From Massalongia carnosa (Eukaryota), in contig OZ287085.1 in the NCBI GenBank assembly GCA_965645245.1, forward strand, positions 186,001 to 250,000: 64,000 nt of DNA, given 5' to 3'. Positions 21,601 to 51,885 of this stretch are shown one piece after another. The position numbers and the translations under genes were made by a program. Below the pieces are notes generated by a model. The model was given only the letters and a program-made list of their open reading frames with translations. It did no database searches and had not been told where the DNA came from. How positions within the stretch are numbered: position 1 is the stretch's first letter; the number at the start of each line of letters is the position of its first letter.

Positions 21601-22737
21601 AAACAGTCGTCTAGAATCTGGTATGAAACGATCACTACTTTTTTCAAGTCTCATGAATTCGTTCCAGTCAACGCCGACCTTAGCGTTTTCGTTAAAGAAG
21701 GGGTTATCGTAGCCATTTACGTCGATGATTTAATCATCACTGGCTCTTCTTCTTCCGAGATACAACGTGTCAAGAAACTGCTGAGTGACGAGTTCTCGAT
21801 GGTTGATTTAGGCCCTATCAATTACTACCTGGGCATGACGATAACTCGGGATCGGGCTAATAGGATTCTTCGCCTTGGTCAGCAGGCCTATCTGGAAAAA
21901 GTACTACGCGACCATGGCATGTGGGACACTAACCCCGTGGCTACCCCGATGGATGGGCGACTGGAGGCTGCACCAGAGGGCCATCAGGCCACAGATGACT
22001 CTCGCCTCCGCTACCAATCAGCGGTGGGCTCTCTCATGTATGCTATGCTAGGCACTAGGCCTGACTTAGCCTACGCCGTATCGGTGGTCAGCCGCTATGC
22101 CTCGAACCCGACCGATACGCACTGGAAGGCAGTCAAACGCATCTTTCGATACATCAAGGGCACTCTACCGTTGCAGTTAACATACAAAGGTCACTTACAA
22201 CCCTTGAACGGTTACACTGACGCGGATTGGGCCGGAGATCATCATACCCGAAGGTCTACCTCAGGCTTCGTGTTTAATGTGGGTAGTGGCGCTATTAGCT
22301 GGTCTTCCAAACGACAACCGACCGTAGCCCTATCTTCATGCGAAGCCGAGTACATGGGTCAGACTCAAGCCACCAAGGAAGCCGTCTGGCTGTCTAGTCT
22401 TCTCGACCAACTTTCAGCACCTCAAGTCCCTGGGATACACTCTCTCCAAACCCAGAGCACCTCTGTAGCCCTTGCCTGCTTGCCTACATCTTTCGCCCTA
22501 AATGCTATCATCATTCACTGCGACAATCAAGGAGCAATAGCTTTGGCCCAAAATCCCCAGGCACACGCGCGGAGCAAGCATATTGACATCCAATGGCACT
22601 ACCAAAGAGAGAAGATCGAAGACAAATCAGTGGAATTTCGCTATGTTCCTACCGAAGAACAGGTAGCTGACGGCCTAACCAAGGCCCTACCAAAGGACAA
22701 ATTTGTTGTCTTTCGAAAAGCTTTAGGCTTAGAATAA
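18613..22737 (+). CDS. Intact Copia gag-pol polyprotein (1374 aa)
   Basis: Single ORF with CNHCRKDYHVESEC knuckle, WICDSGT protease, WHARLGH, IHSDV/LRSDCGGEY/NGTAER integrase, YVDD RT, YTDADW/HCDNQGA/ADGLTK RNase H. Confidence 0.97.
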   Translation: MSEKISGSGSYSAIDRIPKLVDHEGYPAWKRAMRDCLKMIDLWIYCDNTEAAPRPNAPNDGFNKWKKGQDKACTALRLACEGNAYTDIEDHTTASVAWDLLESNYKPRGSGFLNDTFRKLDNLILSDCSSPADYVTQFRATVNKLRTFSSKLSLDENWLIYRFHTNLGFEYNSYFERYAQDHDPFNEMGEPKHTLSQAMQHFQNTVTNPSKSSDKAVIAMAAVSNAQTQAGAQPGTAHSRIITKTIKFCNHCRKDYHVESECREKYPHLVNQDSQRKSNKRRRNSKSQGQSQKPTGNNDSTKGAFCAYMATADITKISKLWICDSGTSQHITHDRSIFTSFKTSDCPPIQGIGGVLIPKGIGNVMLRCAGNEGLREFPLFDVLYVPDGGLNLISQGQLQRDGCPLKIVPEGIEIGNYGIIARRQDNNLYILNMWNVSEAALALAAINSEAIKMWHARLGHLGNQNILKLAGMSKGMDLTKPPPQDACPPCAIAQSQVEPHRAPIQPGKHPLDLIHSDVQGPFPEALNGAKYMVTFLCDFDKRSHVTLLRVKSGVLQAFKNYKKQNEYGDKRIKRLRSDCGGEYDSKDFENFRNEHGIQWEPTVPGNPPMNGTAERLGQTLHKLASTMREGAKLDIKYWAEMVLTANYLRNRQPTAGRSITPYESHTGSPPELGHLRIIGQTGYAQNRKPSTGWKKFQERATKCTLVGYEGDHIYRMINPRGAVMRYSNVQWIDNNPPTPPSLSFSQTKRALHVGQSGPPTRKQKITHHTDSPHTDLVDAHESIESIPTGPLPSNAGKEALANQLPIEPWSQADILSKHPKLRAPSPDPLALLALLARANDPEPYEPKTYKQAVDSREEKDWRRAMQEEIDSINENDTWILTSLPPDRKALRGKWVYKIKRGPAGEILRYKARWVVRGFEQREGIDYNETFASVVKPMSYKAIFAIAAANDWEIHQMDVKTAFLYGRVDEEIYVEQPTGLDDGSTRVCKLKKALYGLKQSSRIWYETITTFFKSHEFVPVNADLSVFVKEGVIVAIYVDDLIITGSSSSEIQRVKKLLSDEFSMVDLGPINYYLGMTITRDRANRILRLGQQAYLEKVLRDHGMWDTNPVATPMDGRLEAAPEGHQATDDSRLRYQSAVGSLMYAMLGTRPDLAYAVSVVSRYASNPTDTHWKAVKRIFRYIKGTLPLQLTYKGHLQPLNGYTDADWAGDHHTRRSTSGFVFNVGSGAISWSSKRQPTVALSSCEAEYMGQTQATKEAVWLSSLLDQLSAPQVPGIHSLQTQSTSVALACLPTSFALNAIIIHCDNQGAIALAQNPQAHARSKHIDIQWHYQREKIEDKSVEFRYVPTEEQVADGLTKALPKDKFVVFRKALGLE

Positions 22738-23355
22738 ACCAGAAGCCCTTTGTCGTAAAAAATTCGACCTTAACCCAAAAAAAAAAAAAAAAAGTATCAC
22801 CCACAGCTGAGCCTGTGGGGGTGTTTTCGTACATCGCCAGCAGCATTAGCCTGCGGAGTACACTGACTCACCTGCAGGTGATCCACTGGGAAGCATGATA
22901 TTATACTGGAGTATGTGGGAGTTATTGAATTTCTCTTTATCATGTGGGAGTGCTATTTCAGTGCCTGAGTGGGAGTGTTAGAATGTACAAATCAGGTTAC
23001 TTCATTTCAGCCGCACTCACCTTCTACCGCACGAGTATGGCGCACGCTAATGGCTAGACGTATCGCTAGTCTAATACTAGCATACCGTACATTGTCTATA
23101 AATCTAGCTATTCCCACTATATAGAACAACAGCAAGCGTTCTATCCTCTATCTACTATACTACCTTTTGATAGGTTGTGAGTACAGAGTATGAGAACCCC
23201 ACCTCCCTCTACTCGCCGTCAGATGGGAAGTCTCACCAGATAGAAGCTGCGTACACAAAATCTCGAGATTTCCCTCCACGGCAGCTTTCGCAATCGGTGC
23301 GGTGCGGAGTCGATAATCAAGGCAGGCTTGGAGGGAGGAGAAGACGCCGATATTT

Positions 23356-24255
23356 TGTTAAATAAACAGTTGACGGCATAATGTTGAAATTACATTACTA
23401 CGGAGGTGACTGCTTATAGCAGTCATGGCAGCCTGCAGGGCTGAGCTAGAACTAATGGGGCTAAGCGAGTATTCCAACACTCCCCTTCGAGCGTGGCTCC
23501 CCTTTCGCCTCCAAAATTGAACTATCCAGCTTTTATCACTCCCCTTGCGAAGTGATTCATCCAGCTGTGTCCGATTCGCTCCCCTTGCGGAACGAATCTA
23601 GCTCCCTCTGACTCCATTTTCCCTAAGCACGTAGTTCTTTCTTATGTCTTTTGTTGTCCTGCTTTGTAGCCTCATTAAACCCATAACCATCTCTCGAGAC
23701 GTAGCTTTTGTGAGTGTATGGGTGGATGGGAAGAGTACTATGGACGTGTTTTATTGATGGCCTGAGCAGGGCTTTTCTCGATGTCTCTGTTAGACATTTT
23801 CCCGCAGACCATTGACGTTGGTGGCCTGATCGCAGGGCTTTTATCTCCCCTTGCTGATCTGACCAGTAATGCAAGATGTGAAGTCTTCGAGGCACCGCCC
23901 ATTGTAGATGTCCTCCTCAGCACGTTTCGTACGTACACCACTTTCGATGACGTTTCCGCTTCGTTTCCGCTTCGTTTCTCATCCCTTTCGATGTCGTTTC
24001 CGCTTCGTTTTCGCGCTTTCCACGTCTGAACTTTCACCTCATCATCTTCTTGATACGACATGATAGTACGTAGTCTATGCATGAAGGATGCCGTCGGAGG
24101 GGCGCAAAGCACAAACCCGGGACTCATAACCTGTTAAATAAACAGTTGACGGCATAATGTTGAAATTACATTACTACGGAGGTGACTGCTTATAGCAGTC
24201 ATGGCAGCCTGCAGGGCTGAGCTAGAACTAATGGGGCTAAGCGAGTATTCCAACA
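23356..24255 (-). mobile_element. TRIM-like non-autonomous Copia-type element (900 bp; 124-bp LTRs)
   Basis: LTRs at 23356-23479 and 24132-24255 (TGTTGG...TAACA on minus), identical by eye. TSD TATTT at 23351-23355 and 24256-24260. PBS-like GGTTATGAGTCCC at 24119-24131. PPT GAAGGGGAG at 23480-23488. No recognisable RT/IN inside. Confidence 0.92.
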
Positions 24256-24611
24256 TATTTGACGCCCACAAGTCAAGTCTACTAAGCTGATCCTCTGCGA
24301 TGCGTCTAGACTCTTCTGCAAAATTCTCTTGACAACATAGAAGAAGTTTGCGAGTTCTCTTGGCTGTATCTGAGATTGAGGATGCAATGTCATTCATGGC
24401 TGAGGCGGCGGGCAAGGACGAGGCCATGGTGAAAAGGAGGGCGTAAATTCAAGGCTGCGACAGCCTCACAGCTGCGAGTTCATGCAATATCAGCAAAATA
24501 TGATCTGTGACAACCCGACAAGCAGGGTTGGAGTGAAAGAATACAATATAGTGTGATATGTAGAGAGTATTCAGGTCCGATCAGATGAACAAGTCACTTC
24601 ACATGAAATTA

Positions 24612-27600
24612 ATTTCGCGCCACGGTCAATAAGCTTTGTACCTTCTCAAGCAAGCTAAGCCTGGACGAAAACTGGCTTAGCTATCGCTTCCATACCAATT
24701 TAGGCTTCGAATACAACAACTATTTCGAACGATACGCTCAGGATCATGATCCTTTCAATGAAATGGGTGAACCCAAGCACACATTAAGTCAGGCTATGCA
24801 GCATTTCGAAAATATGGTGACCAACCCAAGCAAGTCCAGCGATAAGGCCGTAATCGCAATGGCAGCTGTTTCAAACGCTCAAACCCAAGCAGGAGCTCAA
24901 CCCGGAACAGCCCATTCTCGAATCATCACCAAGACCATCAAGTACTGCAACCACTGCCGAAAGGACTATCACGTAGAGAGCGAGTGTCGTGAAAAATATC
25001 CACACCTCGTTAACCAAGACTCACAGCGTAAGTCCAATAAGCGTCGCAGGAATTCCAAAAGTCAAGGTCAAAGTCAAAAGCCAACCGGAAACAATGACTC
25101 AACCAAAGGAGCCTTCTGCGCCTACATGGCCACCGCGGATATAGCCAAAATATCTAAGCTCTGGATCTGTGACTCTGGAACTAGCCAACATCTTACCCAC
25201 GATCGCTCCATCTTCACCTCATTCAAGATATCCGGTTGCCCTCCAATCCAAGGTATTGGAGGAGTATTAATTCCCAAAGGAATAGGTAACGTTATGTTGC
25301 GGTGTGCCGGTAACGAGGGTCTTCGGGAATTCCCTCTTTTCGATGTGTTATACGTTCCGGACGGAGGCCTAAATCTCATCTTCCAAGGACAATTACAACG
25401 AGATGGATGTCCCCTGAAGATCGTACCAGAGGGAATTGAAATCGGGAACTATGGTATCACCGCTCGCCGCCAGGACAACAATCTCTGTATATCCTGAACA
25501 TGTGGAACGTCTCTGAAGCCGCTCTTGTTGGAATACTCGCTTAGCCCCATTAGTTCTAGCTCAGCCCTGCAGTCACCTCCGTAGTAATTTCAACATTATG
25601 CCGTCAACTGTTTATTTAACAGCTCTCGCTCTCGCTGCAATTAATAGCGAGGCGATAAAAATGTGGCACGCTCGTTTAGGCCATCTTGGAATTCAAAACA
25701 ATCTCAATCTCGCTGGCATGTTAAAAGGAATGGACCTCACCAAGCCCCCGCCCCAAGACGCATGTCCTCCGTGCGCCATCGCTCAGTCCCAAGTAGAACC
25801 ACACCGGGCCCCCATCCAACCAGGCAAGCACCCGCTGGACTTAATTCACAGCGATGTTCAAGACTTTTCTCAGAAGCCTTGAATGGCGCCAAATATATGG
25901 TGACCTTTCTTTGCGATTTCGATAAACGGTCCCACGCCACCTTACTGCGCGTCAAAAGCGGAGTCCTTCAAGCTTTTAAAAACTACAAGAAGCAAAATGA
26001 ATATGGGGACAAACGAATTAAGCGCTTGCGATCGGACTGTGGGGGTGAGTATGACTCCGAAGACTTCGAGAATTTCAGAAACGAGCATGGCTACCGTACC
26101 GGGAAATCCACCTATGAACGGGACAGTCGAGCGCCTAGGTCAAACGCTTCACAAGTTAGCCAGCACCATGCGAGAAGGCGCTAAACTCGACATCAAATAT
26201 TGGGCTGAAATGGTTCTCACTGCCAACTGCCTAAGAAATCGACAACCAACTGCGGGACGCTCCATCACCCTCTACGACTCTCACACCGGCAGCCCACCAG
26301 ATCTAGGACATCTAAGGATAATAGGACAGACTGGCTATGCGTAAAATCGCAAGCCCTTCACCGGATGGAAGAAATTTCAAGAACGAGCCACCAAATGTAC
26401 TTTAGTAGGATACGAAGGCGATCACATCTATCGAATGATAAATCCACGGGGCGCGGTCATGCGTTATTCCAATGTTCAGTGGATAGATAACAATCACCCA
26501 ACTCCTCCTTCCTTATCATTCTCTCAAACTAAAAGAGCCCTACATGTTGGACAGGCAGGACCGCCCACAAGAAAGCAAAAAACTACCCATCATACGGACG
26601 CCTATCATGCGGACTTAGTCGACGCTCATGAATCCATAGAATCAATCCCTACTGGAACTCTCCCATCATACGCTGGACAAGAGGCATTGGCAAACCAACG
26701 GCCCATTGAGCCTCGGTCCCAGGCAGATATTCTCTCTAAGCACCCAAAACTTCGTGCCCCCTCGCCTGACCCACTAGCTCTTTCGGCTCTTCTTGCTCGA
26801 GCCAATGACCCGGAGCCATACGAGCCTAAAATCTATAAACAGGCCGTAGACAGTCGGGAGGAAAAGGATTGGCGAAGGGCAATGCAGGAAGAAATTGACT
26901 CTATCAACGAAAATGATACCTGGATCCTCACCTCCCTGCCCCCGGACCGCAAAGCCCTGCGAGGCAAATGGGTTTATAAAATCAAACAAGGCCCGGCTGG
27001 CGAGATTCTTCGTTACAAGGCTCGATGGGTAGTCAGAGGCTTTGAGCAACGTGAAGGCATTGACTACAATGAGACTTTTGCTTCAGTAAGTGAAGCCAAT
27101 GAGCTATAAAGCCATCTTCGCTATTGCTGCAGCCAATGCCTGGGAAATTCACCAAATGGACGTAAAAACAGCCTTCTTGTACGGAAGGGTGGACGAGGAA
27201 ATCTACGTGGAGCAACCAACCGGTCTGGATGACGGTCAACGAGAGTTTGCAAGTTGAAGAAAGCTCTTTATGGCCTGAAACAGTCGTCTAGAATCTGGTA
27301 TGAAACGATCACTACTTTTTCAAGTCTCATGACTTCGTTCCAGTTAAAGCCGACCTTAGCGTTTGCGTTAAAGAAGGGGTATTTCGTAGCCATTTACGTC
27401 GATGATTTAATCATCACTGGCTCTTCTTCTCCCGAGATACAACGTGTCAAGAAACTGCTGGGCGACGAGTTCTCGATGGTTGATTTAGGCCCTATCAATT
27501 ACTACCTGGGCATGACGATAACTCAGGATCTGGCTAATAGAATTCTTCGCCTTGGTCAGCAGGCCTATCTGGAAAAAGTACTTCGCGACCATGGCATGTG

Positions 27601-28860
27601 GGACACTAACTCCGTGGCTTCCCCGATGGATAGGCGACTGGAGGCTGCACCAGAGGGCCATCAGGCCACAGATAACTCTCGCCTCCGCTACCAATCAGCG
27701 GTGGGCTCTCTCATCATGTATGCTATGCTAGGCACCAGGCCTGACTTAGCCTACGCCGTATCGGTGGTCAGCCGCTATGCCTCGAACCCGACCGACACGC
27801 ACTAGAAGGCAGCCAAACGCATCTTTCGATACATCAAGGGCACTCTTCCGTTGCAGTTAACATACAAAGGTCACTTACAACCCTTGAACGGTTACACTGA
27901 GGCGGAATGGGCCGGAGATCATCATACCCGAAGGTCTACCTCTGGCTTCGTGTTTAATGTGGGTAGTGGCACTATTAGCTTGTCTTCCAAACGACAATTG
28001 ACCGTAGCTCTATCTTCATGTGAAACCGAGTACATGGGTCAGACCCAAGCCACCAAGGAAGCTGTCTGGTTGTCTAGTCTTCTCGACCAACTTTCAGCAC
28101 CTCAAGTCCCTGGGAATCACTCTCTCCAAACCCAGAGCACCTTTGTAGCCCTTGCCTGCTTGCCTACATCTTTCGCCCTAAATGCTATCATCATTCACTG
28201 CGACAATCAAGGAGCAATGGCTTTGGCCAAAAATCCCCAGGCACACGCGCGGAGCAAGCATATTGACATCCAATGGCACTACCAAAGAGAGAAGATCGAA
28301 GACAAATCAGTGGAATTTCGCTATGTTCCTACCAAAGAGCAGGTAGCTGACGGCCTAACCAAGGCCCTACCAAAGGACAAATTTGTTGTCTTTCGAAAGG
28401 CTTTAGGCTTAGAGTAAACCAGAAGCCCTTTGTCGTAAAAAATCCGACCTTAACCCAAAAAAAAAAAAAAAAAGAAAGTATCACCCACAGCTGAGCCTGT
28501 GGGGGTGTTTTCGTACATCGCCAGCAGCATTAGCCTGCGGAGTACACTGACTCACCTGCAGGTGATCCACTGGGAAGCATGATATTATACTGGAGTATGT
28601 GGGAGTTATTGAATTTCTCTTTATCATGTGGGAGTACTATTTCAGTGCCTGAGTGGGAGTGTTAGAATGTTCAAATCAGGCTACTTCATTTCAGCCGCAC
28701 TCACCTTCTACCGCACGAGTATGACGCACGTTAGTTAATGGCTAGACGTATCGCTAGTCTAATACTATGATACCGTACATTGTCTATAAATCTAGCTATT
28801 CCCACTATATAGAACAAAAGCAAGCGTTCTATCTTCTATCCACTATACTACCTTTTGATA
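24612..28860 (+). mobile_element. Degenerate, 5'-truncated second copy of the Copia at 13113-23172, with 3' LTR 28660-28860
   Basis: Colinear with about 19022-23172. ORF pieces 24763-28417 are broken by frameshifts and stops. The LTR again ends ...TTTTGATA. Confidence 0.95.
25526..25621 (+). repeat. Solo LTR of the TRIM family (internally deleted, 96 bp)
   Basis: TGTTGGAATACTCG...TTTAACA with TSD GCTCT (25521-25525, 25622-25626), inside the degenerate Copia. Confidence 0.93.
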
Positions 28861-35960: not shown

Positions 35961-36763
35961 CTCAACGTTGGGTTCTAGAGTAGATTGGTAGTACTTGAGG
36001 TCGTAGCTGATCCTTCGTTCGTAAATCGTCATTTACACAACGGATCACTTTAGGTTCAAGTCGTATAGAATTTGTGAGCAAAACTGGATGCTACAAAGGT
36101 GACGAGAAAGTGGGCGCTTCTTCAAACGCAGAGACCAAACCTAGCGTTGCCATTTCACCTTGCAGCACAAATCACCAATCAGTATCCATTATTCAAGGCG
36201 AGTTCAGGATCTGATCTGTCGATCATGCATGGCTCGGTTATGAACTACTTTGCGAAGCGCTCTCTTCGATTTTTACGCGAATATAGCCGACGAGTATTCA
36301 ACTTCGGATTAGTCGTAACGAGGTTGGTGTCATGATAAGCTGTTTTATCGTAACTCGTTCAAATTTTGATACGAAACCTTGAATTTTGATGAAGAATCTT
36401 GAGGATTTGGAGGGGACATAAAGGGTAGACTGCTATGAAAAGGTCAAATCATTGAGCGACTTAAAGCCGAAGTCATGCGAGCATTAAGCTTGTTTAGGGA
36501 CACGAATTGTGGCGAGTGGTTGTCCTGTTATTAAAATATATACAGTCGACTGCAAAAGGTTGGTCGCGACCCTGAATTTGGGACCACATATCAAATATTT
36601 ACGCGAAAATGGCAAAATGCCGGCAAAAATCCGAAAAACTACCCTCACCGCCTACATGTCAATGAAGTCGTACTACTGGTCAGTATTGAAGCGACTTGTA
36701 GATTAGTATATGTAGATGCCATTCCCCGTCTTTTTTCCCTCTCTCCTCTACCATTTTCCCAAA

Positions 36764-37808
36764 ATGCCCCCCCCTCTCAGTGAGACCCTTCGTGAGACAA
36801 TCACGCTTCGTTTTGTACGAGGTGACAGCAATAAGACAATTGCATCTGTCACTGGTGTTGGCATCAGACAGATTCAACGAATGAGACGTAATTGGACTCA
36901 TTTTGGAGATGTGGTTCTACCTCAATTGTCAATTGGACATCGCCCTCGTAAACTCAGTCAATCTCATGAGATTGAACTTCTGAAATATCTGGAGCAACGT
37001 CCGTATGCCTATCTGGACTAAATGTGCTGGTTCATTTGGGATGAATTTCAGATCTCTGCAGATGAGACCACCGTTGGTCGTGCCCTAAAAAGGCTTGGTT
37101 GGAATCGAAAGAAGGTGATCAAACAAGCAGCTCAAAGAAATCAAGGCCTTCGAGATGGATGGATGCAGAGACTCGGAGAATGGACTGCAGAGCAATTGAT
37201 CTTTTTGGACGAAAGTGCAGCTTGCGAAAGAACCGGTTATTTCCTATCTCATCTTTCATCCCATCTTCGTCATTTTTCTGACTTTCTGACTAGGTGATCG
37301 ACGATACGGATGGGCTCAGGCAGGCGTCCCTCCAATCATGATTCAGGATTTGAAAAGGTCAAAGAGATGGAGCATTCTTCCTGCATTTACCGTCGATGGA
37401 TATATAGCTTGGGAGGTGCATCAGGGCTCCATAACTGCCGAAATTTTCAACGACTTCGTTCGAAATCAGGTTCTTCCTCAGACGACTGCCAATGGAGGTC
37501 CTAGATCTGTTTTAGTACTAGATAATGCCAGCATTCATTGGAATCAGGAGCTTATTCAGATGTGCGAGACAGCCAACGTCACCTTGGCACGACTACCTCC
37601 TTATTCTCCAGATTTCAATCCAATTGAAACGTCGTTTGCATTGCTAAAGGCATGGATTCGACGGAATGGAGAAATGAGTCTTTCGTACACGGAGGAGTAT
37701 GGGGGATTCGGACAATTTCTTCGGGATGCAGTCAAAGATCTGAGAATGGGAGACCCGGGAAATTTATTTAGATTGGCTGGCATTCAGTATCCCACCATTT
37801 CAATCTGA
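36764..37808 (+). pseudogene. DD34E transposase (Tc1/IS630 type), one intron (37236-37293), one premature TAA at 37019
   Basis: N-terminal HTH regions; FLDESA, VLDNASIH, PPYSPDFNPIE (34 residues between D and E). Splicing restores RTGDRRYGW. Confidence 0.9.
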
Positions 37809-39989
37809 TTAGATACATAGTATATAATCCTCATCTTCATCTTCGGCATAATCGTATTCTAGACTATGCGTCTCATCTTCCTCAATTGTATCTCTCACTC
37901 CAGATCCTACCTCCCCGCCCCTGTCCACCTCCCCATCCTCCATCCCCTTATCCACCCGAGTGACCGCCTGAGTGACCGCCTGAGTGGCCATTTGCGATGT
38001 CGGTAAATGGCGTTGACGCCGAGGGGGAGGCGGGGGCATTTGCTGAGATATCTGTCGAGACATTTGTCGAGACATTTGCAAAGGCATTTGCCGAGACATT
38101 TCTCTTCCAAATTTACTGACGTCTCGCGCCAGTTGAATCCCGATTCCCGGAGGAATTCCTAGCTCCTGCCAGAACGTCTGATGCTCGATGCCTTTCAAGG
38201 ATTGAACGGTCATCAGATCGTACCCACCTTCCATCAATCGATCGCAGGCGTTGGTGAGCACTCCTTTCAAATGAGGCTTCATTTGAACGAGCCAACTGAC
38301 ATAGTCTTCCAGATCTTCTTCCACTGGACTGCTGCGGGCGACGGAGGGGAGAGGGAGAAATCGACTCACGCTTCGACTGCTTCTGGATGATCTCGAAGCT
38401 CTCCAATCCAACGGCGTTTCCTCACGGGCTCGTCTCGAGTCAGGTAATGTAGAAGCAGCATACTGAGAAGGATAAAATGCCGAGGGGGGAAATGCCGAGT
38501 GAGGAAATGCCGAGGGGAATGCCGAGGGAAATTTCGAGGGGAATGCCAATGACGAGGGGGGAAATGTCGAGTGGGGGATTTGGTACGAGTGGTGTTGATA
38601 CATGGGATGTTGATAAATAAAATGCCCACCTCCAAAGGGCATTTCCTGAGACGAGGTTTCCTGTTTTGGAGATGATGATTCAGTCTTTTTCTTACCTTTA
38701 TTCAGGGAGAATAAATTCTCTCTGATCTTCGATGGAGGTGTTCGAGAATCAACGCCTGAAATTCCATCATCTAGTGCTTTATTCCAGGTCACGAAATGAG
38801 CACTGTTGAGAGGATAATGCTGATTCTTCGTCTCATCATTCCAACAGTACTGTCCGAAATTCCTACATGCGCGTTTTTCACAGAGATGCAGACTTTGCAA
38901 TTCGGACATTCTTTCGGCCGTCATGCCTTGCAACATGGCTCGTTCCTCCATCTCTTTTTGCAGCTTCATGGTCGCGGTTCCCAATTTCTTGGTGGCGACA
39001 GCTGTGGCAGCAGCAATAGGATCATCGGGAGGAATGACGCCGTCTTTGGTACGACTGAAGTTGAAAATAAGATCAACCGCGAAGCTTTTCTTTCGAATGC
39101 TGCTGTCTTCTAAATGAATTAGAACCTCCTCAATGGACTGCCAGGATTCGATCAACATGAGAGCTGATTTTTCATGCGGTTTGATTCCATTCCATAACAC
39201 GGTCGCTTTGATATCGACCAAATGACAAGCATACATTTTGAAATTCGCATACGTCTCGGCTTACAAACTCATGTCCCCGGTGTAGCTTCTCAAAAAGAAT
39301 CTTTTCGACGTAGTTGAATTGACTTCGTATGGAATCACCGTCTCGAAAACGACGTGCTTCTCATACGACATCTTCACATTTAGTAGATATTTGATTACCG
39401 TCGGAGGCAGTGGCGAAGGGGATAAACGGGAGGGTTCCTTTCTTCTTGGCTTTCTAGACTTCTTACTGACAATCGAGTTACTAGGCACATTGAGATCTTC
39501 GACATCATCTTCGGCATCATCTTCGGAATCATCTTCGGCATCATCTTCGGCATCTACAGCTTTCATCGCGTTCTCCTTTCTCCACTGACCCTGCCACCTC
39601 TGCTTCTCGTCTTCATCCGTCCAGTCGTCGGAGGAATCCTCCGTAATGACAAGGGGACTATAGTAATTCGATTCGAAAGTCTTTGACTGCTGAGGCTGGA
39701 CCTTTGACTTGGGAGGGGCCTTTGGCTTGGGAGGGACCTTTGGCTTGGGAGGGGCCTTTGGCTTGAGGGGGGCCTTTGGCTTGAAGGGGGGCTTTGACTT
39801 GAGGGGAGGCTTTGGCTTGGGAGGGGCCGACGTCGATTCCGGCGAGGCTTCATCGACGCCGGCGGCGACAATGGCTCTGGCTCTCGGCCCTCCCAAAGTC
39901 AGTTTGATTCTCTTACCTTTGAAAGGCTCTTTTCCAGCCGGGGGGGGGCCGGAATTTGATCTTTTTGCTCTCGGTTCACGAAGTTTCAT
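37809..39989 (-). pseudogene. Transposon-borne second gene (~725 codons) with one in-frame TAA at 39261-39263
   Basis: ORFs 39261-40049 and 37809-39236 share a frame. The product has KPKAPP repeats, an acidic tract, a Cys/His cluster (HLCEKRACRNFGQYCW...HYPL...W) and a SAM-like C-terminal segment (FWQELGIPPGIGIQLAR). Confidence 0.7.
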
Positions 39990-40223
39990 ATCTGAGATAA
40001 AAAATGGGGAATGGCAGAGGGGAGAGGGAAAAAAGACGGGGAATGGCATCTACATATACTAATCTACAAATCGCTTCAATACTGACCAGTAGTAAAACTT
40101 CATTGGCATGTAGGCGGTGAGGGTAGTTTTCAGATTTTTGCCGGCATTTTGCCATTTTCGCGTAAATATTTGATGTGTGGTCCCAAATTCAGGGTCGCGA
40201 CCAACCTTTTGCAGTCGACTGTA

Positions 40224-40625
40224 GCAGTTGGACATCCCGGAATGGCAAAAACACAACGAACAATCGCCAGGGACTACTACTGGCTAGGCATGTTGAACTC
40301 CATTCGGCGTTATGTCAGAAATTGCCATGTGTGCAAACGAGCCAAAGCACCCAGGGACAAATACAATGGAGTACTGAAACCCCTGACAGTTCCTGAAAGA
40401 CCATGGACAGACATTTCGTTGGATTATGTAACTGGACTTCCAGAATCCCAAAATGGTCACAATGCAATTTTGATGGTAGTCGACCGATTGTCAAAGGAAC
40501 GGCACTACATTCCATGCACGGCCAAGGACGAGGGAACAACCGCTGAAGCCACCGCTAAACTGCTGATTGGGAGTGTTTGGAGGTATCACGGCCTCCCAAC
40601 CAGTATGATTTCTGATCGAGGACCG
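40224..40625 (+). mobile_element. Ty3/Gypsy integrase fragment
   Basis: GHPGMAKT...RDYYW...CHVC, PWTDISLDYVTGLP, VVDRLSK, ISDRGP. Confidence 0.9.
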
Positions 40626-40713
40626 TGATGAATAGTAAAATTCACGTGTAGGTATAATAGCATGATTGTCATTGAAGGTGTGGATTATATGTGAGCTATC
40701 TACTTCATTATAT

Positions 40714-41715
40714 CCCTCTCGTTGTTACCCAAGCACCCCCCCCCCAAGCTAACCATTATTAGCTAGCTTCCGCATTTAGCAAATCTGAATTAGTCATGCG
40801 AACATCAATTTTTTCTTGACTGTTTACCTTTCAAATGAACTTCATTGAACCTCATTCAATAAATTTAGACCTCGTCAATTGCTGTCTTTCTATATACGGG
40901 ATTTTTACTGTGATTATGGGGCTCAACGAAGAAGAAATCCCGAGTGTTTCAGACAAATCGCCAATCTCAGCGAAGCAGCATTAATTAAATCGCAAAAGAG
41001 GTGTCCAAAACATCTTGATCGATATTCTATTCCTTCTACTTCCTCTAAATATACCCCTATTCGTGTTATCAACAGGCCTTTTGTTCCATTAATTGAAGAC
41101 ATTGCTCGAAGTCCTCTGGAATTATTTCAGTTGTTTATAACAAGGCAGCATTGTCGCATCATCGCATATCATACCAATATCAAAGCACACGACTACATGG
41201 AGAAGGAGAAGGAGAATAATCATCGAAATTGGACTGATACTACTGGCTCGGAAATAGAGGTGTTTTTGGGCATAATACTTCTTATGGGTCTCGATCGTCT
41301 ACCTGCTACAGAAGATTATTGGAATCAGCGCCCGGACAAGCCAGTCATCATGCCTATTCAGTCCGCTATGTCGCTTTATCGATTTCAACAAATCAAGCGA
41401 TTTTTGAAAATCAACAATGGACGAACAGAGCCTCCGGGACTGGGCAAAGGACCTGATTGGTGGAAGAAACTAGAACCGTTGGCCACTGATTTTCGAAAGG
41501 CCTCGTTGAAACATTGCATACCAGGAAGCAATATTTCTATAGATGAACAACTGGTGCTATTTAAAGGCCGATCTCGACACACCATGCAAATCGCTAATAA
41601 AAGTGCTCACAAAGGATTTAAAATCTACAGCCTCTGTCAGGATAATTATTTGTTGTCGTTTTTGTTTGCCTCCAAGACTAGCAAAATAAGTCAATTGAAA
41701 ACTGTCAAATTATAG
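40714..41715 (+). mobile_element. piggyBac-like transposase fragment (3'-truncated)
   Basis: ORF 40879-41715 has FLGIILLMG...YW, MSLYRFQQIKRFL, ISIDEQLVLFKGRS, KGFKIYSLC. It begins near a CCCT-like end; paired TIRs were not confirmed. Confidence 0.8.
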
Positions 41716-44449: not shown

Positions 44450-47400
44450 ATGATGTGCAGCAGAGACACAGTCAAGGCCTCAGGTCTTAATATTTGGGTA
44501 AGTGGCGAGGAAGACGATAATGGACCCGAAGTAGAGTAAGACAAACGATTCTTCATGAAGCCGCAGCATCACTGACAGACGTTTAAGCGTGATTGCAGTT
44601 CAAGGTCTCGGTGCTGATCCATATTACACATGGGTCTCGAGGCAAAATTCTGCAAAGCAACCAAAATCTAGAAAAGTCCATCGATTCAAGTTCTTAAAAA
44701 GCCGTGCTCAGACTGACAAACTTCCCGCCGCTCAAACGATATCCGACACTACTGAAGTCATGTGGCTTCGAGACTTGCTGCCGAACTTCGCTTCAAATGC
44801 TCGAGTTGCGACATACAGTTACGAGTCAGATTGGCGAAAAGCAGACATCAAAACAAGTCTCCGCAAATGTGGGGAGCAGTTTCTTAATGTTCTTTATCAG
44901 AATCGGTCATGTGAAAAAGTTAGTAAAGCTATCACGGGAATTCTTCGTTTGTCTTTACTAATAGTCTATATAGCAACGTCGTCGACCATTAATTTTTATT
45001 GGACATAGTCTTGGAGGTTTAGTTATTAAACAGGTCAGTCTGGCTTGACTCTAAATTTTTTTATTTACTGAGGGCCTCGTCATAGGCTCTAGTATTAGCC
45101 AATCATGGTGAATATTTTAGAGATATTAGATTGTCCACGACTGGGATCATCTTTCTTGGAACGCCACATCAAGGAAGTGACGTTGCAGTATATGGTGCAT
45201 GGCTTGCTCAAGCAGTAGGACATGATAAGACGTTATTAGAGTCTTTGAAAACAAACAGCCCTACTCTTCATGATATAGCGCGGGACTTCGAAACAAGTTA
45301 CGTCAATGTTGATATCGTTTGTTTTTATGAAGATAAGAAAGGGTCATATGGACCTTGGCAGACTCAGGTCTGATACTCTCTGTTTTCGCGCTCAACTGGG
45401 ATGAAAGCTTATGACTCATAGCTCGTTGATTATCAATCAGCTTCTCTGCTTAGCAAAAGGATCATATACCTCACTACGGATCACTCAGGATTGAACAAAT
45501 TCGATGGCCCTGAAGATGAAAATTTTCTCTTGATAAAGCCAGAGGTTCAGAGAATGATTCAGAATGCGTCTCAAAGAGTGGAGGAACAGTATCACTGTAT
45601 GATTCAATTTTCTTACTCTAGACTTCACGTTTTTTAAGGCTTCTCTAACTCTTTGTCAGCACGTGTTGAAATCAGCGAAAAAAAACCGTTCCATATTGAA
45701 TTCAGTCTTCAGGGCATTCCTGTGATGAATCATTTTGTAGCCCGAGACGTAGAGATGACTCGATTGACTCGGATTTTACTTCCCACCACCATAGATTCAA
45801 TGCGTCGTAAAGTATTCATCCTTCATGGACTTGGCGGGATTGGAAAGACTCAGCTCTCCGTTGAATTCGCTCGACAACATCACAAGAACTATACCGCAGT
45901 CTTCTGGGTCGACGGCTCGACTAAGGAGAGACTAAAGCGAAGCATTGCTGACCTTGCCGGTCGACTACCTCAGCATCAGATATCTGAAAATAGCAGAAAT
46001 TATTCACAGGAGAAAAGCACGAAGAAGAAAACGGATGTGGATGAAATCGTTAAAGATGTGCTTAATTGGTTATCACAATCATCAAATGATCAATGGCTGC
46101 TAATTTTTGACAACGTGGATCAAGAGTTTTCTGTATCAATTGAAGATCCGGAAGCCTTCAATGTTCAAGATTTTTTCCCAACGGCAGATCAAGGATCTAT
46201 CCTTATCACTTCTCGACTGGCCAGTTTATGGCATTTGGGTACGGATATGAAAGTAAACCCGGTCAATCAATTACAAGGAGAAAGAATTCTCGAGAATTGT
46301 CTCGGGCAATCCATGCAAGGTCAGTGCAATGATAAGCATACTTGCCAGGCGTTATCTGACACCTAAGACTTATTAGGTTTATTCGAGATTGTCAATCTAC
46401 TTCAAGGCCTTCCTCTAGCGATTAATCAAGCCGGTTCATACATGCGGAAAACAGGCACAAACGTGTCTGAGTATATTAAATCATATAATCACACATGGGC
46501 AAAATTAATGAAAAAGCAGCATCGCTCCACAATTCAAGCAGGTACAGATCGTAGTGTTTTGACAACATGGATGTTATCTTTCAATCATCTTCAGGTGCAA
46601 AGTAAGGACGCAGCGAACATTTTAATGCTGTGGGCGTTTCTCGACAATCAAGATCTCTGGTATGAGCTCTTTGCGTCTGCACTAGATCATCATATTGTCG
46701 GCATGATGCCTGATTGGTATATCAGATGTGCAGGTGATGAACTTGAATTCAAAGACTGCATAGGACTACTTTTGGAATATTCCTTCATTGATGCAAAAAT
46801 TGAATCATCTTCCTTCGCTATGCATCCTGTGCTTCATCAGTGGTCATTTCACGTATTTGAGAAAGAGAAGACTAATATGAGCTGGCTTGCCATGATTATT
46901 GTCGCATTCGCTGTGCCTTTAGAGACTGTGCCTAATTATTCTTTCATATCGAGACGTCTTCTGCCACATTGCGATCGTGTTTTCCCATTACTGAAGCATC
47001 GCATACAAGAAAGCTTTGACAACAAGACAGATTCTTTATCTCTTTGCTACGCATGTCATGAATTAGGACATTTGTATGCAGATCAAGGCAAGATGAACAA
47101 GGCCGAAGAGATGTGTCTGCGAGCATTGACAGGATACGAAAAGGCCTGGGGTCCTGATCACACATCAACGCTCAACACAGTCAACAATCTAGGAAGTCTG
47201 TATAAAGATCAAGGCAAGATGAACGAGGCCGAAGAGATGTATCTGCGAGCATTGACAGGAAAGGAAAAGGCCTGGGGTCCTGATCACATATCAACGCTCA
47301 TCACAGTCAATAATCTAGGAAATCTGTATGCAGTTCAAGGCAAGATGAACGAGGCCGAAGAGATGTATCTGCGGGCATTGACAGGAAAAGAAAAGGCCTG

Positions 47401-49150
47401 GGGTCCTGATCACACATCAACGCTCGACACAGTCAACAATCTAGGAAGTCTGTATAAAGTTCAAGGCAAGATGATCGAGGCCGAAGAGATGCATCTGCGA
47501 GCATTGATAGGATACGAAAAGGCCTGGGGTCCTGAGCACACATCAACGCTCATCACAGTCAACAATCTAGGGCTTCTGTATAAAGATCAAGGCAAGATGA
47601 ACGAGGCCGAAGAGATGTATCTGCGGGCATTGACAGGAAATGAAAAGGCCTGGGGTCCTGATCACACATCAACGCTCAACATAGTCAATAATCTAGGGCT
47701 TTTGTATGCAGATCAAGGCAAGATGAACGAGGCCGAAGAGATGTATCTGCGAGCATTGACAGGATACGAAGAGGCCTGGGGTCCTGAGCACACATCAACG
47801 CTCAACACAGTCAATAATCTAGGAAATCTGTATGCAGTTCAAGGCAAGATGAACAAGGCCGAAGAGATGTATCTGCGAGCATTGACAGGATACAAAAAGG
47901 CCTGGGGTCCTGAGCACACATCAACACTCAACACAGTCAATAATCTAGGATATCTGTATAAAGTTCGAGGCAAGATGATCGAGGCGGAAGAGATGTATCT
48001 GCGGGCATTGACAGGAAAGGAAAAGGCCTGGGGTCCTGATCACACATTAACGCTCGACACAGTCAACAATCTAGGAAGTCTGTATGCAGATCAAGGCAAG
48101 ATGAACAAGGCCGAAGAGATGTATCTGCGGGCATTGACAGGAAAGGAAAAGACCTGGGGTCCTGAGCACACATCAACGCTCAACACAGTCAACAATCTAG
48201 GAAGTCTGTATGCAGATCAAGGCAAGATGAACAAGGCCGAAGAGATGTATCTGCGGGCATTGACAGGATACGAAAAGGCCTGGGGTCCTGATCACACATC
48301 AACGTTCGACACAGTCAACAATCTAGGAAGTCTGTATAAAGATCAAGGCAAGATGAACGAGGCCGAAGAGATGTTTCTGCGAGCATTGACAGGATACGAA
48401 AAGGCCTGGGGTCCTGAGCACACATCAACGCTCATCACAGTCAACAATCTAGGGCTTTTGTATGCAGATCAAGGCAAGATGAACGAGGCCGAAGAGATGT
48501 ATCTGCGAGCATTGACAGGAAATGAAAAGGCCTGGGGTCCTGATCACACATCAACGCTCGACACAGTCAATAATCTAGGAAGTCTGTATGCAGTTCAAGG
48601 CAAGATGAACAAGGCCGAAGAGATGTATCTGCGAGCATTGACAGGATACGAAAAGGCCTGGGGTCCTGATCACACATCAACGCTCAACACAGTTAACAAT
48701 CTAGGAAATCTGTATAATGTTCAAGGAAAGATGAACAAGGCCGAAGAAATGTATCTGCGGGCATTGACAGGAAAGGAAAAGGCCTGGGGTCCTGATCACA
48801 CATCAACACTCGACACAGTCAACAATCTAGGAAGTCTGTTTAAAGTTCAAGGCAAGATGATCGAGGCCGAAGAGATGTATCTGCGGGCATTGACAGGATA
48901 CGAAAAGGCCTGGGGTCCTGAGCACACATCAACGCTCAAGACAGTCAACAATCTAGGAAGTCTGTTTAAAGTTCAAGGCAAGATGATCGAGGCCGAAGAG
49001 ATGTATCTGCGGGCATTGACAGGATACGAAAAGGCCTGGGGTCCTGAGCACACATCAACGCTCAACACAGTCAACAATCTAGGGCTTCTGTATAAAGATC
49101 AAGGCAAGATGAACGAGGCCGAAGAGATGTATCTGCGAGCAGTTATCTAA
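44450..49150 (+). CDS. Fungal NLR: SesB-like alpha/beta hydrolase + NB-ARC + TPR array (7 exons, ~1455 aa)
   Basis: Predicted exons 44450-44535, 44588-44918, 44974-45033, 45086-45367, 45422-45596, 45660-46319 and 46377-49150 (all GT-AG, frame preserved). Motifs: VIAVQGLG, GHSLGG, FLGTPHQGS, DHSGLNKF; Walker A HGLGGIGKT; Walker B LLIFDNVD; GLPLAI; MHPVLH. Confidence 0.9.
47050..49141 (+). repeat. Array of 126-bp (42-aa) TPR repeats: 16 complete + 1 partial, highly homogenised
   Basis: CAAGGCAAGATG (QGKM) or a close variant recurs every 126 bp from 47084 to 49100. Confidence 0.97.
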
Positions 49151-49546
49151 GACATATGATAAAACAGTTTCTATGTAAATGTTGAAGATAATGCTGATTA
49201 AAACACAATAAAGCCTGTAACTTCAAGATTTGACTAAGAATTTATACAGTTGTGATTGATTGAAGTTCTTTTCTCTGTAAAACATCGGTCGCATGCAGTC
49301 TCTCACTGAAATCTTCACTCGTTATTCACTTGAAACTGAACTTGCAAATCTTCTCTATTTATCTACGTATAAGGTTTTGATTTGTCAAGATCACGGTTAT
49401 GCTCTCAGTCAAGGTCGACTTATAATATATCTGCGAGAAGAACATGCAATTAAAGGACCTGAACTGCGTGCAGCGTTGGAAGAACTGCAATCGAAAGAAC
49501 TGGAATTGTTACCGTCTGCTGCAGTTTCCGTTCCATCTTCAGATTA

Positions 49547-51885
49547 ACGTAACTCACTGGGCAACGGGACAAACTGGGCAACGGGACTAAGTAATTCCGA
49601 AATCATCACTTTTTGACCACTCTAGATGATGAAGCCTTCATTACATATATTTTACATACAAATTCAGCTTCAGACATCACAGTAGATTATATTCATCATT
49701 TTGAAACTTTATAATCATGGGTGTAGGTAAAAAACCACCTCCCACAAGACCTCCATTCCTTCATGTTTTCACCCCACCTCCACCTATCAACAACGATTAC
49801 AGTCAGCCATTTTGGCCTGGAAACAGGCCGATAGAGCTCTTTCCATTACGAAGGCAGCTTTTCTATATGATGTTTCAAAGTCTACCCTTCATGCCCGCAT
49901 TCAGGGTCGTCAATCACGATTTACGTCTGATCAAACTAAACAACTGCTGACCCCCGAGGAGGAAGACGCTTTGAAGAACTGGGTTTTACAACTGTACGCC
50001 TGGGGCTGGCCTGCTAAAATAGCTCAGCTACGTCAGATGGCCATAGAATTACTACGAGCAAGGGGGAATCATACTGTGCTAGGAGTCAGTTGGCAACAGT
50101 ATTTTTTACATCGTCATCCCGACCTGCAGGCTAAATACAGTCGCACACTAGATCAAGAACGATTATTCGCTGAGAATGAAGAGATATTTCAGCACTGGTT
50201 TGACCTTTTCCTCTCCATGAAAGAAAAGCACGGAATTCTTGATGAAGACATCTACAACATGGACGAAAAGGGATTCATGATGGGGGTAGCTGCTAATGCT
50301 AAAGTAGTAATTTCTAAGCACGAAAAGCAAGTCTTTTCAGCACAGTCAGGTAATCGAGAATGGGTGTCATTGATCGAGTCCATTTGTACTACCGGTCGAA
50401 GTTTACCTCTTTTCGTCATCTTCAAAGGAGTCAACAAGCAAAAGGCCTGGTACGATGCACTGGAGGACATTGACACTGAAATAGCTACCAGCGAAAACGG
50501 ATGGACAGACAATGAACTAGGTCTTGATTGGTTGAAAAAGTGTTTTGAACCTGCTACTGCAAAATATCTACACGGTGAATATCGACTTCTTATAGTAGAT
50601 GGTCATGCTTCCCATATTTCTACCGAATTCATCAAGTTTTGCAACGAAAAGAAAATCATTCTTTTGTGTCTACCTCCACATACTACCCATATGTTGCAAC
50701 CTCTGGACGTGAGTGTTTTTGGGCCCTTATCACGGGAGTACAAAAAACAATTGGAGGTCGTCACCCGATTCAACGTCTGTTCAGTGGACAAGGTGGATTT
50801 TCTGAAGATCATTCAAAAAGCAAGAAAAGAAGCAATCAACACAAAAAACGTGCTGACTGCATGGAGAGCAACCGGATTAGTACCATACAATCCGTCATCA
50901 GTTCTTCAAAAACTCACTAATAAACAATCGGTGTTGCGAAAGACTGATAGCATCATCACCACCACTACCACCACCACCACCACTACTACTACCACCACCA
51001 CGAATATCATCTCCTCTCATCCTAACACTCCGACAACCCTTCAAAACTCTCACGAAATTGAAAAGACACCTGCAAATATCGATCAAATAAATCAACTGAT
51101 TCGTCGAATTCGAAATGATGAAGAATCAGACTCGACTCCCGTTCGAGCGCTAAATAAATTGATAAAAGGCGCTAAATATGCCTTCGCAGACTCTACCTTG
51201 CTACGTATCACCAACAACGAGCTTCTTCAGGCCAATGTACGGCGCCATCATCGAGCCAATCGTAGCGGGGCTCACTATGGAGGAAAGGCTCGAGTTCTAA
51301 GCCTTGAAGACGTGCAACAAAGACAGCAATGGGCCAAAGATAAACAAAAGGTGAAAGACGAAAAAAAGAAGGCCGCTCAACTAAAACGAGCTGAGCAGGA
51401 CCTTATCAAAACTTTCAGGGAAATGTGTCGATTTGGACCTGATTTACTAGGACAAACGTCTACTGCATCTTTGACGAAAAGTCCTCAGAAAAGACCTCAG
51501 AAAGCACCTGATAGTTCACAAAGTAAGCCTATTTGTTCTTTTCAAAGACGATTACTACCTCCTCCCGTGCTTCAACCAATGACAGAAGAGGTAGAGGGGG
51601 TGGAGGAGGTGAAGGTGAGTGGGGGGGTAGAGGTGGAGGTAGAGGTGGTGGAGGAGGTGAAGAAGGTTCAAACTACCAGACGGGGTCGTATTGTACGTCA
51701 ACCACGTAAAATGTGATTAAGTTGCATGCAGACAAAATATCAATTTCACGTCTAATAGACATTGAAGCCGAGTTTGTATGTAAAACGGGTGATAGGGAGG
51801 CTGTAGAAATTAAGCGAAATTTAGTTAGTCCCGTTGCCCAGTTTGTCCCGTTGCCCAGTTTGTCCCGTTGCCCAGTGAGTTACGT
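49547..51885 (+). mobile_element. pogo/Fot1-like DNA transposon
   Basis: TIRs ACGTAACTCACTGGGCAACGGGAC... at both ends, with TA at 49545-49546 and 51886-51887. Confidence 0.95.
49812..51716 (+). CDS. pogo/Fot1 transposase (HTH-psq, CENP-B HTH, DDE_1); true start probably upstream across a frameshift (ATG 49717)
   Basis: YDVSKSTL, LTPEEEDALKNW, YNMDEKG, LIVDGHASH, PPHTTHMLQPLDV; poly-Thr tract near 50958-51002. Confidence 0.9.
   Translation: MAWKQADRALSITKAAFLYDVSKSTLHARIQGRQSRFTSDQTKQLLTPEEEDALKNWVLQLYAWGWPAKIAQLRQMAIELLRARGNHTVLGVSWQQYFLHRHPDLQAKYSRTLDQERLFAENEEIFQHWFDLFLSMKEKHGILDEDIYNMDEKGFMMGVAANAKVVISKHEKQVFSAQSGNREWVSLIESICTTGRSLPLFVIFKGVNKQKAWYDALEDIDTEIATSENGWTDNELGLDWLKKCFEPATAKYLHGEYRLLIVDGHASHISTEFIKFCNEKKIILLCLPPHTTHMLQPLDVSVFGPLSREYKKQLEVVTRFNVCSVDKVDFLKIIQKARKEAINTKNVLTAWRATGLVPYNPSSVLQKLTNKQSVLRKTDSIITTTTTTTTTTTTTTTNIISSHPNTPTTLQNSHEIEKTPANIDQINQLIRRIRNDEESDSTPVRALNKLIKGAKYAFADSTLLRITNNELLQANVRRHHRANRSGAHYGGKARVLSLEDVQQRQQWAKDKQKVKDEKKKAAQLKRAEQDLIKTFREMCRFGPDLLGQTSTASLTKSPQKRPQKAPDSSQSKPICSFQRRLLPPPVLQPMTEEVEGVEEVKVSGGVEVEVEVVEEVKKVQTTRRGRIVRQPRKM

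Follow-up and report, generated by a model that had tools for sequence, protein, structure and literature searches.

The window analyzed here is a 64,000-nucleotide stretch of Massalongia carnosa DNA (assembly GCA_965645245.1, contig OZ287085.1, positions 186,001 to 250,000). Between positions 36543 and 40221 of the window lies an element of 3,679 bp with TA adjoining both ends. It is a decayed copy of a fungal IS630-Tc1-mariner (ITm) cut-and-paste transposon of the DD34E, TA-targeting type and belongs to a two-gene lineage. Its terminal inverted repeats (TIRs; 36543 to 36755 and 40010 to 40221) are approximately 213 bp long and 96% identical to each other, which bears out an original prediction, made from the sequence alone, of TIRs of about 220 bp with TA flanks. 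That prediction also described a transposase running inward from the left TIR and an unrelated gene running inward from the right one, and the open reading frames form exactly such a convergent pair. We refer to the unrelated long frame as gene 2.

The transposase of the window element matches the Pfam families DDE_3 (E = 1.6e-22), HTH_33 (E = 2.9e-6) and, weakly, HTH_23. Once spliced, it is a 328-amino-acid DD34E protein encoded with one 58-bp GT-AG intron; 34 residues separate the second Asp from the Glu in all nine copies that are readable in frame at both motifs. The window copy itself is dead, with a premature stop in each gene, each private to it among 16 copies of its family (family A; individual loci carry L numbers); neither these stops nor the intron figured in the original prediction. 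The features of the element are as follows.

36541 to 36542, no strand: TA target-site dinucleotide, left flank; TA on both sides in 14/16 full-length copies
36543 to 36755, plus strand: left TIR, ~213 bp, with CAGT tip and pyrimidine-rich inner end, defined by repeat comparison; putative transposase promoter and leader
36716 to 36718, plus strand: in-frame upstream ATG within the left TIR, in family A only (CTG in family B), with T at -3; unlikely to be the conserved start
36764 to 37235, plus strand: transposase exon 1 from the conserved ATG (MPPPLSE), with the HTH_23/HTH_33 region and the first catalytic Asp at 37208 to 37210
37019 to 37021, plus strand: premature TAA in transposase exon 1, window copy only, from the copy alignment
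37236 to 37293, plus strand: GT-AG intron, 58 bp, in 16/16 family A copies and at the same place in families B and C; splicing deduced from frame and homology
37294 to 37808, plus strand: transposase exon 2, with DDE_3, the second Asp at 37521 to 37523 and the Glu at 37626 to 37628
37806 to 37808, plus strand: transposase stop TGA, abutting a TAA at 37809 to 37811
37809 to 37823, no strand: real 15-bp spacer between the stops; gene 2 of the window copy reads through it
37824 to 37826, minus strand: gene-2 family stop TAG (CTA on the plus strand), TAT in the window copy
37827 to 39989, minus strand: gene 2, 721 codons from the conserved ATG (MKLREP); open in L002 (725 amino acids) and L031 (690 amino acids, family B)
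38103 to 38339, minus strand: gene-2 domain 3, SSPV motif plus a domain that appears, from its sequence, to be SAM-like and helical; most conserved part (dN/dS 0.08)
38730 to 38882, minus strand: gene-2 domain 2, C-x4-C-x-N-x4-C-W...H...W...PP, a likely Cys3-His metal site, with a long helix before it; metal binding putative
39048 to 39398, minus strand: gene-2 domain 1, predicted beta-grasp (PB1/ubiquitin-like), from a model of the family B orthologue with coordinates moved over by alignment
39261 to 39263, minus strand: premature TAA in gene 2, window copy only, from the copy alignment
39399 to 39989, minus strand: low-complexity N terminus of gene 2, with Lys/Pro repeats (18-bp units, 39662 to 39846), an acidic tract and a basic patch
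40010 to 40221, minus strand: right TIR, ~212 bp, with the mirror ATG at 40049 to 40047; putative gene-2 promoter and leader
40222 to 40223, no strand: TA, right flank, inside a Ty3-type integrase fragment

Copies and families in the genome

We searched the genome (52 Mb in 25 contigs) for related copies; counts from the DNA search are lower bounds. Family A comprises at least 16 full-length copies at 97 to 98% identity, besides interrupted and truncated ones. TA lies on both sides of 14 of the 16, and the flanks are all distinct except in a duplicated pair (L015 and L016). Family B (eight loci, approximately 70% DNA identity to A) carries the same two genes, and its gene-2 protein shares 55% amino acid identity with that of A; inverted repeats of approximately 150 to 226 bp bound seven of the loci, and the remaining one lacks the left end. 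Family C, located via the gene-2 core, likewise has convergent genes, between 156-bp TIRs. Compared with A, its transposase is 50 to 75% identical, depending on the segment, and its gene-2 core only 28 to 30%. TA flanks recur in families B and C and in a metagenome locus, L086. The whole unit, from TIR through transposase and gene 2 to TIR, moves.

Unlinked single-copy host homologues of gene 2, which the original prediction had named as the contrary case, were not encountered in this genome: all 40 matches to the gene-2 core overlap sequence of family A, B or C, and no free-standing host gene 2 is among them. One of these matches (C17) is a fragment with no transposase within 9.5 kb. Family C has also given rise to a nonautonomous derivative (L075 to L084; about 20 places), in which the transposase carries an insert of approximately 300 bp and gene 2 has lost 1.2 kb. 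This derivative greatly outnumbers the two full-length C copies found, and in 9 of the 10 loci that we examined it sits at a TA site of its own.

Each family C TIR (L071:2670-2823 and L070:2654-2807) bears at its inner end an inverted motif resembling the family A tip, followed by TA, and so resembles a small element of its own. In some family B copies (L037:2870-3632 and L038:2841-3100), the acidic tail of gene 2 contains an expanded 15-bp repeat of as many as ~50 units. The flanks of the window copy (36300 to 36542 and 40222 to 40628) do not restore one site. The left flank is single copy, and the right flank begins inside a Ty3-type integrase whose other copies run on upstream with different sequence, which suggests that sequence next to the element was deleted or that two copies recombined.

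Selection on gene 2 and its homologues

According to the original prediction, gene 2 is a stable component of the element rather than accidental cargo, and dN/dS among copies and linkage of homologues to transposases would serve as checks. Both checks bear this out, as gene 2 is found in three families, is under purifying selection and is linked to the transposase in other organisms. Between families A and B, the ratio of nonsynonymous to synonymous substitutions (dN/dS; Nei-Gojobori method) in gene 2 is 0.28 over 667 codons (bootstrap range, 0.21 to 0.36), with 0.15 in the core and 0.08 in the SAM-like C-terminal domain, and the two transposase exons give 0.06 and 0.18; dS is near saturation and all of these values are approximate. 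The dS values themselves are 2.4 for transposase exon 1, 2.1 for the gene-2 core and 0.46 for transposase exon 2. The low dS of exon 2 (37294 to 37750; L002 versus L032) sits in blocks of near-identical codons, which may reflect either recombination between the families or constraint at the nucleotide level.

A hidden Markov model search retrieved 74 gene-2 homologues at E <= 1e-3 among 1.84 billion representative sequences, whereas word-based searches yielded only 2 and 4 proteins. Full-length homologues have 590 to 770 amino acids and a common domain order: a low-complexity N terminus, a 120-residue domain, the C-x4-C-x-N-x4-C-W...H motif, a Pro-rich linker, the SSPV motif and a helical C-terminal domain. 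Named sources include Brigantiaea leucoxantha and Gallowayella concinna and, weakly, Desarmillaria tabescens (E = 5.8e-4). No description of this protein family was found in the literature searched, which did not extend to Repbase or subscription journals.

Linkage to the transposase outside this genome

We scanned metagenomes with related transposases and considered the best 80 of 564 confirmed loci. A tree built by a quick method from 144 columns, with no named reference elements, separates a fungal-type clade from the rest with a support of 93. This clade includes 13 of the best 80 loci, 12 of them in the tree and one (L099) too short for it. Ten of the 13 have at least 500 bp downstream of the transposase, and five of these ten carry gene-2 domains on the opposite strand. 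One is L086, a complete 3.05-kb element with TIRs 98.6% alike, TA flanks, both ATGs just inward of the TIRs and a convergent gene 2. L087 has gene-2 domains convergent to a related transposase, L088 has a convergent gene 2 with an open 516-codon frame, and L099 has one with the Cys motif (independent E value [iE] of 5.6e-5) and Pfam SAM_1; in L100, convergent gene-2 domains are matched weakly. Among the 67 loci outside the fungal-type clade, many with little downstream DNA, no gene-2 profile scored better than an iE of 0.27.

L099 and L100 have 27 to 28% GC, and L100 groups with a transposase of Ambispora leptoticha (support of 88), so that the two-gene layout may reach Glomeromycota; the signs that their gene 2 is homologous to the ascomycete type are suggestive. 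Further, indirect support for linkage comes from source sequences of identical size: between 27 gene-2 homologues and 86 transposases there are 4 exact coincidences where 0.27 would be expected. Two pairs are credible, those of 4,066 bp (both from ENA) and 50,441 bp. The pair of size 2471 was discounted for mismatched sources, and that of 4291 because it joins a Glomeromycota transposase to an ascomycete-type gene 2. Overall, gene 2 is ancient and under constraint, and in several organisms it is linked to this clade of transposases.

In L086, the target site around TA (3759 to 3766 and 6816 to 6823) is near-palindromic, with six bases on each side.

Decay of the copies and action in trans

The family A transposase is open (328 codons, DD34E, intron removed) in 10 of 16 copies. 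Lesions that break gene 2 are common to copies at different sites (L008/L010, L004/L014 and L006/L007), and the family C derivative without 1.2 kb of gene 2 is likewise found at separate sites; these observations indicate that a copy can do without gene 2 in cis. Mutations private to single family A copies yield a gene-2 dN/dS of about 1.0, as opposed to the low values between families, which argues that gene 2 is selected during transposition and decays after insertion.

Family A shows no strong CpA-specific signature of repeat-induced point mutation (RIP), with 0.0087 changes per site at CpA and 0.0090 at CpG. Several gene-2 and transposase homologues from elsewhere (P0013, P0016, P0017, P0041, P0101 and L087) are rich in Ile, Lys, Phe, Asn and Tyr, as in hypermutated repeats, and L087 is without the usual TpA excess. 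The mutation context of these homologues may thus differ from that of standard RIP.

Domains of the gene-2 protein

We modeled the gene-2 core of family B with AlphaFold (227 amino acids, 49-row alignment; mean predicted local distance difference test score of 89, predicted template modeling score of 0.57). In the model, residues 8 to 121 form a beta-grasp in the order beta-beta-alpha-beta-beta-alpha-beta. Its structural matches are mostly PB1, ubiquitin-like and streptokinase/superantigen beta-grasp domains (Z up to 6.5, root mean square deviation [rmsd] of 3.2 to 5.3). A streptokinase domain is the best match (Z of 6.5), and the PB1 domains of MEK5, MEKK3, NBR1 and Cdc24 score 5.5 to 6.0 (rmsd of 3.5 to 4.6); five of the nine top matches are PB1 by title. 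The scores, although middling, agree with one another throughout the list. The model is thus consistent with a beta-grasp fold for domain 1. Foldseek returned nothing at E <= 0.001 in PDB or BFVD, and Pfam PB1 matched none of the 49 gene-2 members.

Next in the model, a long helix leads into the small Cys3-His domain, for which the fold search gave one 51-residue match (Z of 4.6). A likeness of its Cys spacing to the His-Cys box of I-PpoI was rejected, as the match reached only E = 1.2 and the nuclease residues are missing. For the C-terminal domain, Pfam SAM_1 is above its cutoff in L099 (25 versus 23 bits), below it in L100 and absent from the ascomycete-type members, and a match of 0.82 to a SAM cluster of the Atlas serves as a lead only. 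Taken together, these comparisons suggest a SAM-like domain. A scan of metagenomes for the SAM-like motif gave 92 pattern matches with no relative among them. In Pfam, no enzyme or toxin domain was found in the 49 homologues; matches to 2L_N_poxvirus (E of 0.002 to 0.01) were below the cutoff and were dismissed.

Abutting stops and the ATGs within the TIRs

Two details of the window copy figured in the original prediction. The first, that the stop codons of the two genes abut with zero gap, is accurate for this copy (TGA at 37806 to 37808, TAA at 37809 to 37811) and is not a trait of the family. In 13 of the 16 full-length family A copies, a TAG lying 15 bp away from the stop of the transposase terminates gene 2. 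In the window copy alone, a C>A change at 37824 turns this stop into Tyr, and the frame runs five codons further to the abutting TAA; position 37824 is C at full depth in all four public assemblies that we compared with the window. In L015 and L016, the stop was lost through another change. Since gene 2 is broken upstream of the abutting TAA in all three zero-gap copies, none of them can be translated to it. Elsewhere the gap is 51 bp in all eight family B loci, 15 bp in both full-length family C copies, and 22, 33, 94 and 84 bp in L086, L088, L099 and L100, respectively. We therefore reject the zero gap as a design.

The second detail, an in-frame ATG within each TIR, is likewise real: those at 36716 and 40049 both yield MPFPVFFPS. 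They are, however, confined to family A. In family B the position is CTG and lies behind an in-frame stop, and neither family C nor L086 has an upstream in-frame Met. The starts common to A and B, at 36764 and 39989, lie just past the inner ends of the TIRs, and conserved starts are 1 to 22 nucleotides inward of these ends in A, B and L086 and approximately 65 to 70 inward in C. The base at -3 is A at the conserved transposase ATG and T at the TIR ATG. The shared MPFPVFFPS start is thus rejected as a feature of the lineage, although the upstream ATG is possibly used within family A alone. Neither the zero gap nor the shared N terminus of the window copy carries meaning.

Comparison with known systems

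Among transposons, Tc1/mariner elements are the standard example with a single gene, and common genetic tools are built on them. The window family resembles DD34E ITm elements (Tc1-like/IS630-like) in its DDE_3 and HTH_33 domains, DD34E spacing, 328-amino-acid transposase, TA flanks and, in family A, CAGT tip. The two-gene elements described here differ from them by their long TIRs (136 to 213 bp), their length of 3.0 to 3.7 kb and their second, constrained convergent gene. ITm elements typically carry one gene (PMC13469147), whereas families A, B and C and five outside loci have a second conserved one.

A published candidate is a 3.4-kb Tc1/Mariner element of Pyrenophora tritici-repentis, the "Osmo-CC transduplication" element, which is similar in size and has a second open reading frame between its TIRs, interpreted there as captured cargo (PMC3538342). 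It was reported in 46 copies and is transcribed, and similar reading frames occur in tandem in Alternaria (Manning et al. 2013; PMC3538342). Compared by description, it may belong to the same lineage as the window family. PF08946 (Osmo_CC) matched none of the 49 gene-2 homologues at E <= 0.05, and the match first reported may be spurious, caused by a coiled coil.

Dici1 and Dici2 of Diutina catenulata are fungal DD34E ITm elements with extra coding sequences, a CAGT tip and TA duplication (PMC13469147). They differ by TIRs of 8 to 33 bp, a central transposase of 473 to 477 amino acids, and extra coding sequences that amount to a protein of 143 to 146 amino acids and a transposase relic; their relatives are described as single gene (PMC13469147). 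On these descriptions, the window family, with a 328-amino-acid transposase, 213-bp TIRs and two genes, falls outside the Dici group, with its transposases of 432 to 478 amino acids and, in Dici1 and Dici2, short TIRs and three coding sequences. In ciliates, TBE/Tec elements are DD34E ITm transposons with extra reading frames; those of TBE are under purifying selection, and one encodes a zinc-finger protein (PMC7325037). They have three reading frames, are restricted to ciliates and encode other accessory proteins (PMC7325037).

Similar layouts exist outside ITm. MuDR of maize has a transposase of the Mutator superfamily and is an architectural analogue only. Target duplications of Mutator elements are about 9 bp long, and the window family, with its DDE_3 transposase and TA flanks, lies outside that superfamily. 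The architecture of MuDR consists of two convergent genes between TIRs of ~215 bp, in which the transposase sites and the promoters of both genes lie, with read-through antisense RNA (PMC3440606). RAG-like elements have a Transib-derived transposase, unlike the window family. Their partner proteins have kelch and PHD domains, unrelated to gene 2. What ProtoRAG shares is the convergent arrangement of a transposase and a noncatalytic partner gene in one element (PMC7204232).

Proposed function of gene 2

The two-gene unit would move by ordinary DD34E cut-and-paste into TA; its movement is evident from the copies, and the mechanism is the one known for the family. Each long TIR may hold a transposase site at its outer end and a promoter and leader at its inner end. 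Because each TIR ends in a pyrimidine tract beside a start codon, one duplicated promoter would drive both genes inward, and it is plausible that each TIR provides the same promoter and 5' leader to its gene. Short gaps between the stops imply overlapping 3' ends; from gaps of 15 to 94 bp, overlap of the convergent 3' untranslated regions (UTRs) can fairly be inferred, and it requires no zero gap.

The gene-2 protein itself would be a noncatalytic nuclear adaptor made up of a beta-grasp/PB1-like domain, a Cys3-His module, a SAM-like domain and a basic disordered N terminus. Given these interaction modules, and selection only while the elements spread, gene 2 is best read as a trans-acting helper. 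We consider it likely that gene 2 is a selfish accessory gene whose protein acts in trans for the spread of the element itself. The protein would most likely assemble on the transposase or on chromatin and aid insertion or target choice. The second genes of MuDR, Harbinger and RAG-like elements are proposed or known to help in insertion or target choice, and by analogy gene 2 may well encode a transpososome or chromatin-tethering cofactor, an assignment that we hold tentatively but prefer to the alternatives below.

Several observations count against this view. Single-gene Tc1/mariner transposases work without helpers. Gene 2 was not found in five of the ten fungal-clade loci with at least 500 bp downstream (L085, L089, L091, L092 and L122), of which L122 is sister to the two-gene locus L088; in these loci, either the gene was lost or the copies are truncated. 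Only 1 of 16 family A copies (L002) and 1 of 8 family B copies (L031) have an open gene 2, which fits dispensability as well as action in trans, and gene conversion could also have spread the shared lesions. Regarding the domains, the structural Z-scores are middling (best of 6.5) and indicate fold, not function. The best SAM match of the ascomycete-type C-terminal domain among PDB sequences is weak (MAP3K15 chain 6v0m, a SAM domain; E = 0.036), and a profile-profile comparison of this domain with L099/L100 gave a probability of 2.4%.

A possible, though rather unlikely, alternative is that the gene-2 protein counters silencing: by way of the PB1-like and SAM-like domains, it would oligomerize on DNA of the element or on host silencing proteins and thereby maintain transcription of the family or its unmethylated state. 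A precedent is provided by VANC, the protein that acts in this way for VANDAL elements in Arabidopsis. The same selection and linkage data would fit, as would two likely polymerizing modules and a Cys3-His motif with no enzyme domain, and trans action and patchy loss would suit a helper against host defense. The RIP signature is weak in family A, while several homologues elsewhere look hypermutated by composition; yet the weak signal may reflect the host. Moreover, the folded domains lack the rapid evolution of an arms race (dN/dS of 0.08 to 0.15), and no similarity to a known silencing suppressor was found in Pfam or PDB sequences.

We regard it as improbable that gene 2 is a negative regulator or RNA-level partner, its protein or antisense 3' end damping the transposase and sparing the host. 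Gaps of 15 to 94 bp between the stops in all intact pairs would force overlapping or very short 3' UTRs, and in MuDR, antisense RNA arises through termination failure between the convergent genes; added antisense RNA, however, failed to suppress MuDR (PMC3440606). The low dS of transposase exon 2 between A and B (0.46 versus 2.4 in exon 1) would agree with an RNA-level role but comes in blocks, equally explained by recombination between the families, and a repressor acting in trans would be hard to maintain under purifying selection across many lineages.

To the same low degree, gene 2 might be hitchhiking cargo that benefits or manipulates the host, as a signaling adaptor or half of an addiction system. 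Both PB1 and SAM are domains typical of signaling adaptors. In the Pyrenophora element, Manning et al. read the two-reading-frame structure as transduplication (PMC3538342). Against this, private gene-2 mutations are neutral (omega of about 1.0) and 1 of 16 copies is intact, so that the host does not preserve gene 2; in addition, there is no free-standing host paralogue among the 40 matches and no toxin or enzyme domain in the 49 homologues. Finally, the accidental capture of a functionless host gene, with the zero gap and shared N terminus as design or pure chance, is highly improbable: five fungal-clade loci do lack gene 2, but the gene is under purifying selection between families, is retained at 28% identity inside different TIRs and is linked in other organisms, and neither the zero gap nor the TIR ATG is conserved.

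Returning to the trans-acting helper, a broader picture can be put forward more tentatively still. An old, fungus-wide branch of ITm, from lichen-forming ascomycetes to Glomeromycota-like hosts, might use an undescribed PB1-like/Cys3-His/SAM helper that is driven by a mirrored TIR promoter, polymerizes head to tail, and tethers the transpososome to chromatin or shields the family from fungal silencing. If true, it would give a Tc1-type transposase its first dedicated accessory factor outside ciliates, and the MuDR/ProtoRAG layout would have arisen independently here. That a widespread branch in fungi retains a second gene under constraint suggests a helper function in transposition or against genome defense. 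"Hypothetical proteins" of 500 to 770 amino acids in fungal annotations would belong to a family of transposon genes, and what one paper presented as gene capture may be an ancestral component of the element. With an intact pair in L002, plus the open gene 2 of L031, the question is directly testable.

Neighboring features in the window

A gene at 45638 to 49253 combines an NTPase part, bearing a GKT motif, with a 126-bp (42-amino-acid) repeat present 17 times; it looks like a fungal NLR-type gene with TPR-like repeats. Its decayed, inverted paralogue lies approximately 11 to 16 kb away, at 59300 to 61970. A PF13843 (piggyBac-like) fragment occupies 41197 to 41715, and an open 661-codon frame at 49731 to 51716 is presumably a Fot1/pogo transposase. 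Near-identical direct duplications at 10097 to 13262 and 19022 to 28813 (spacing of 2.7 and 5.7 kb, 95 to 99% identity) are probably retroelement copies.

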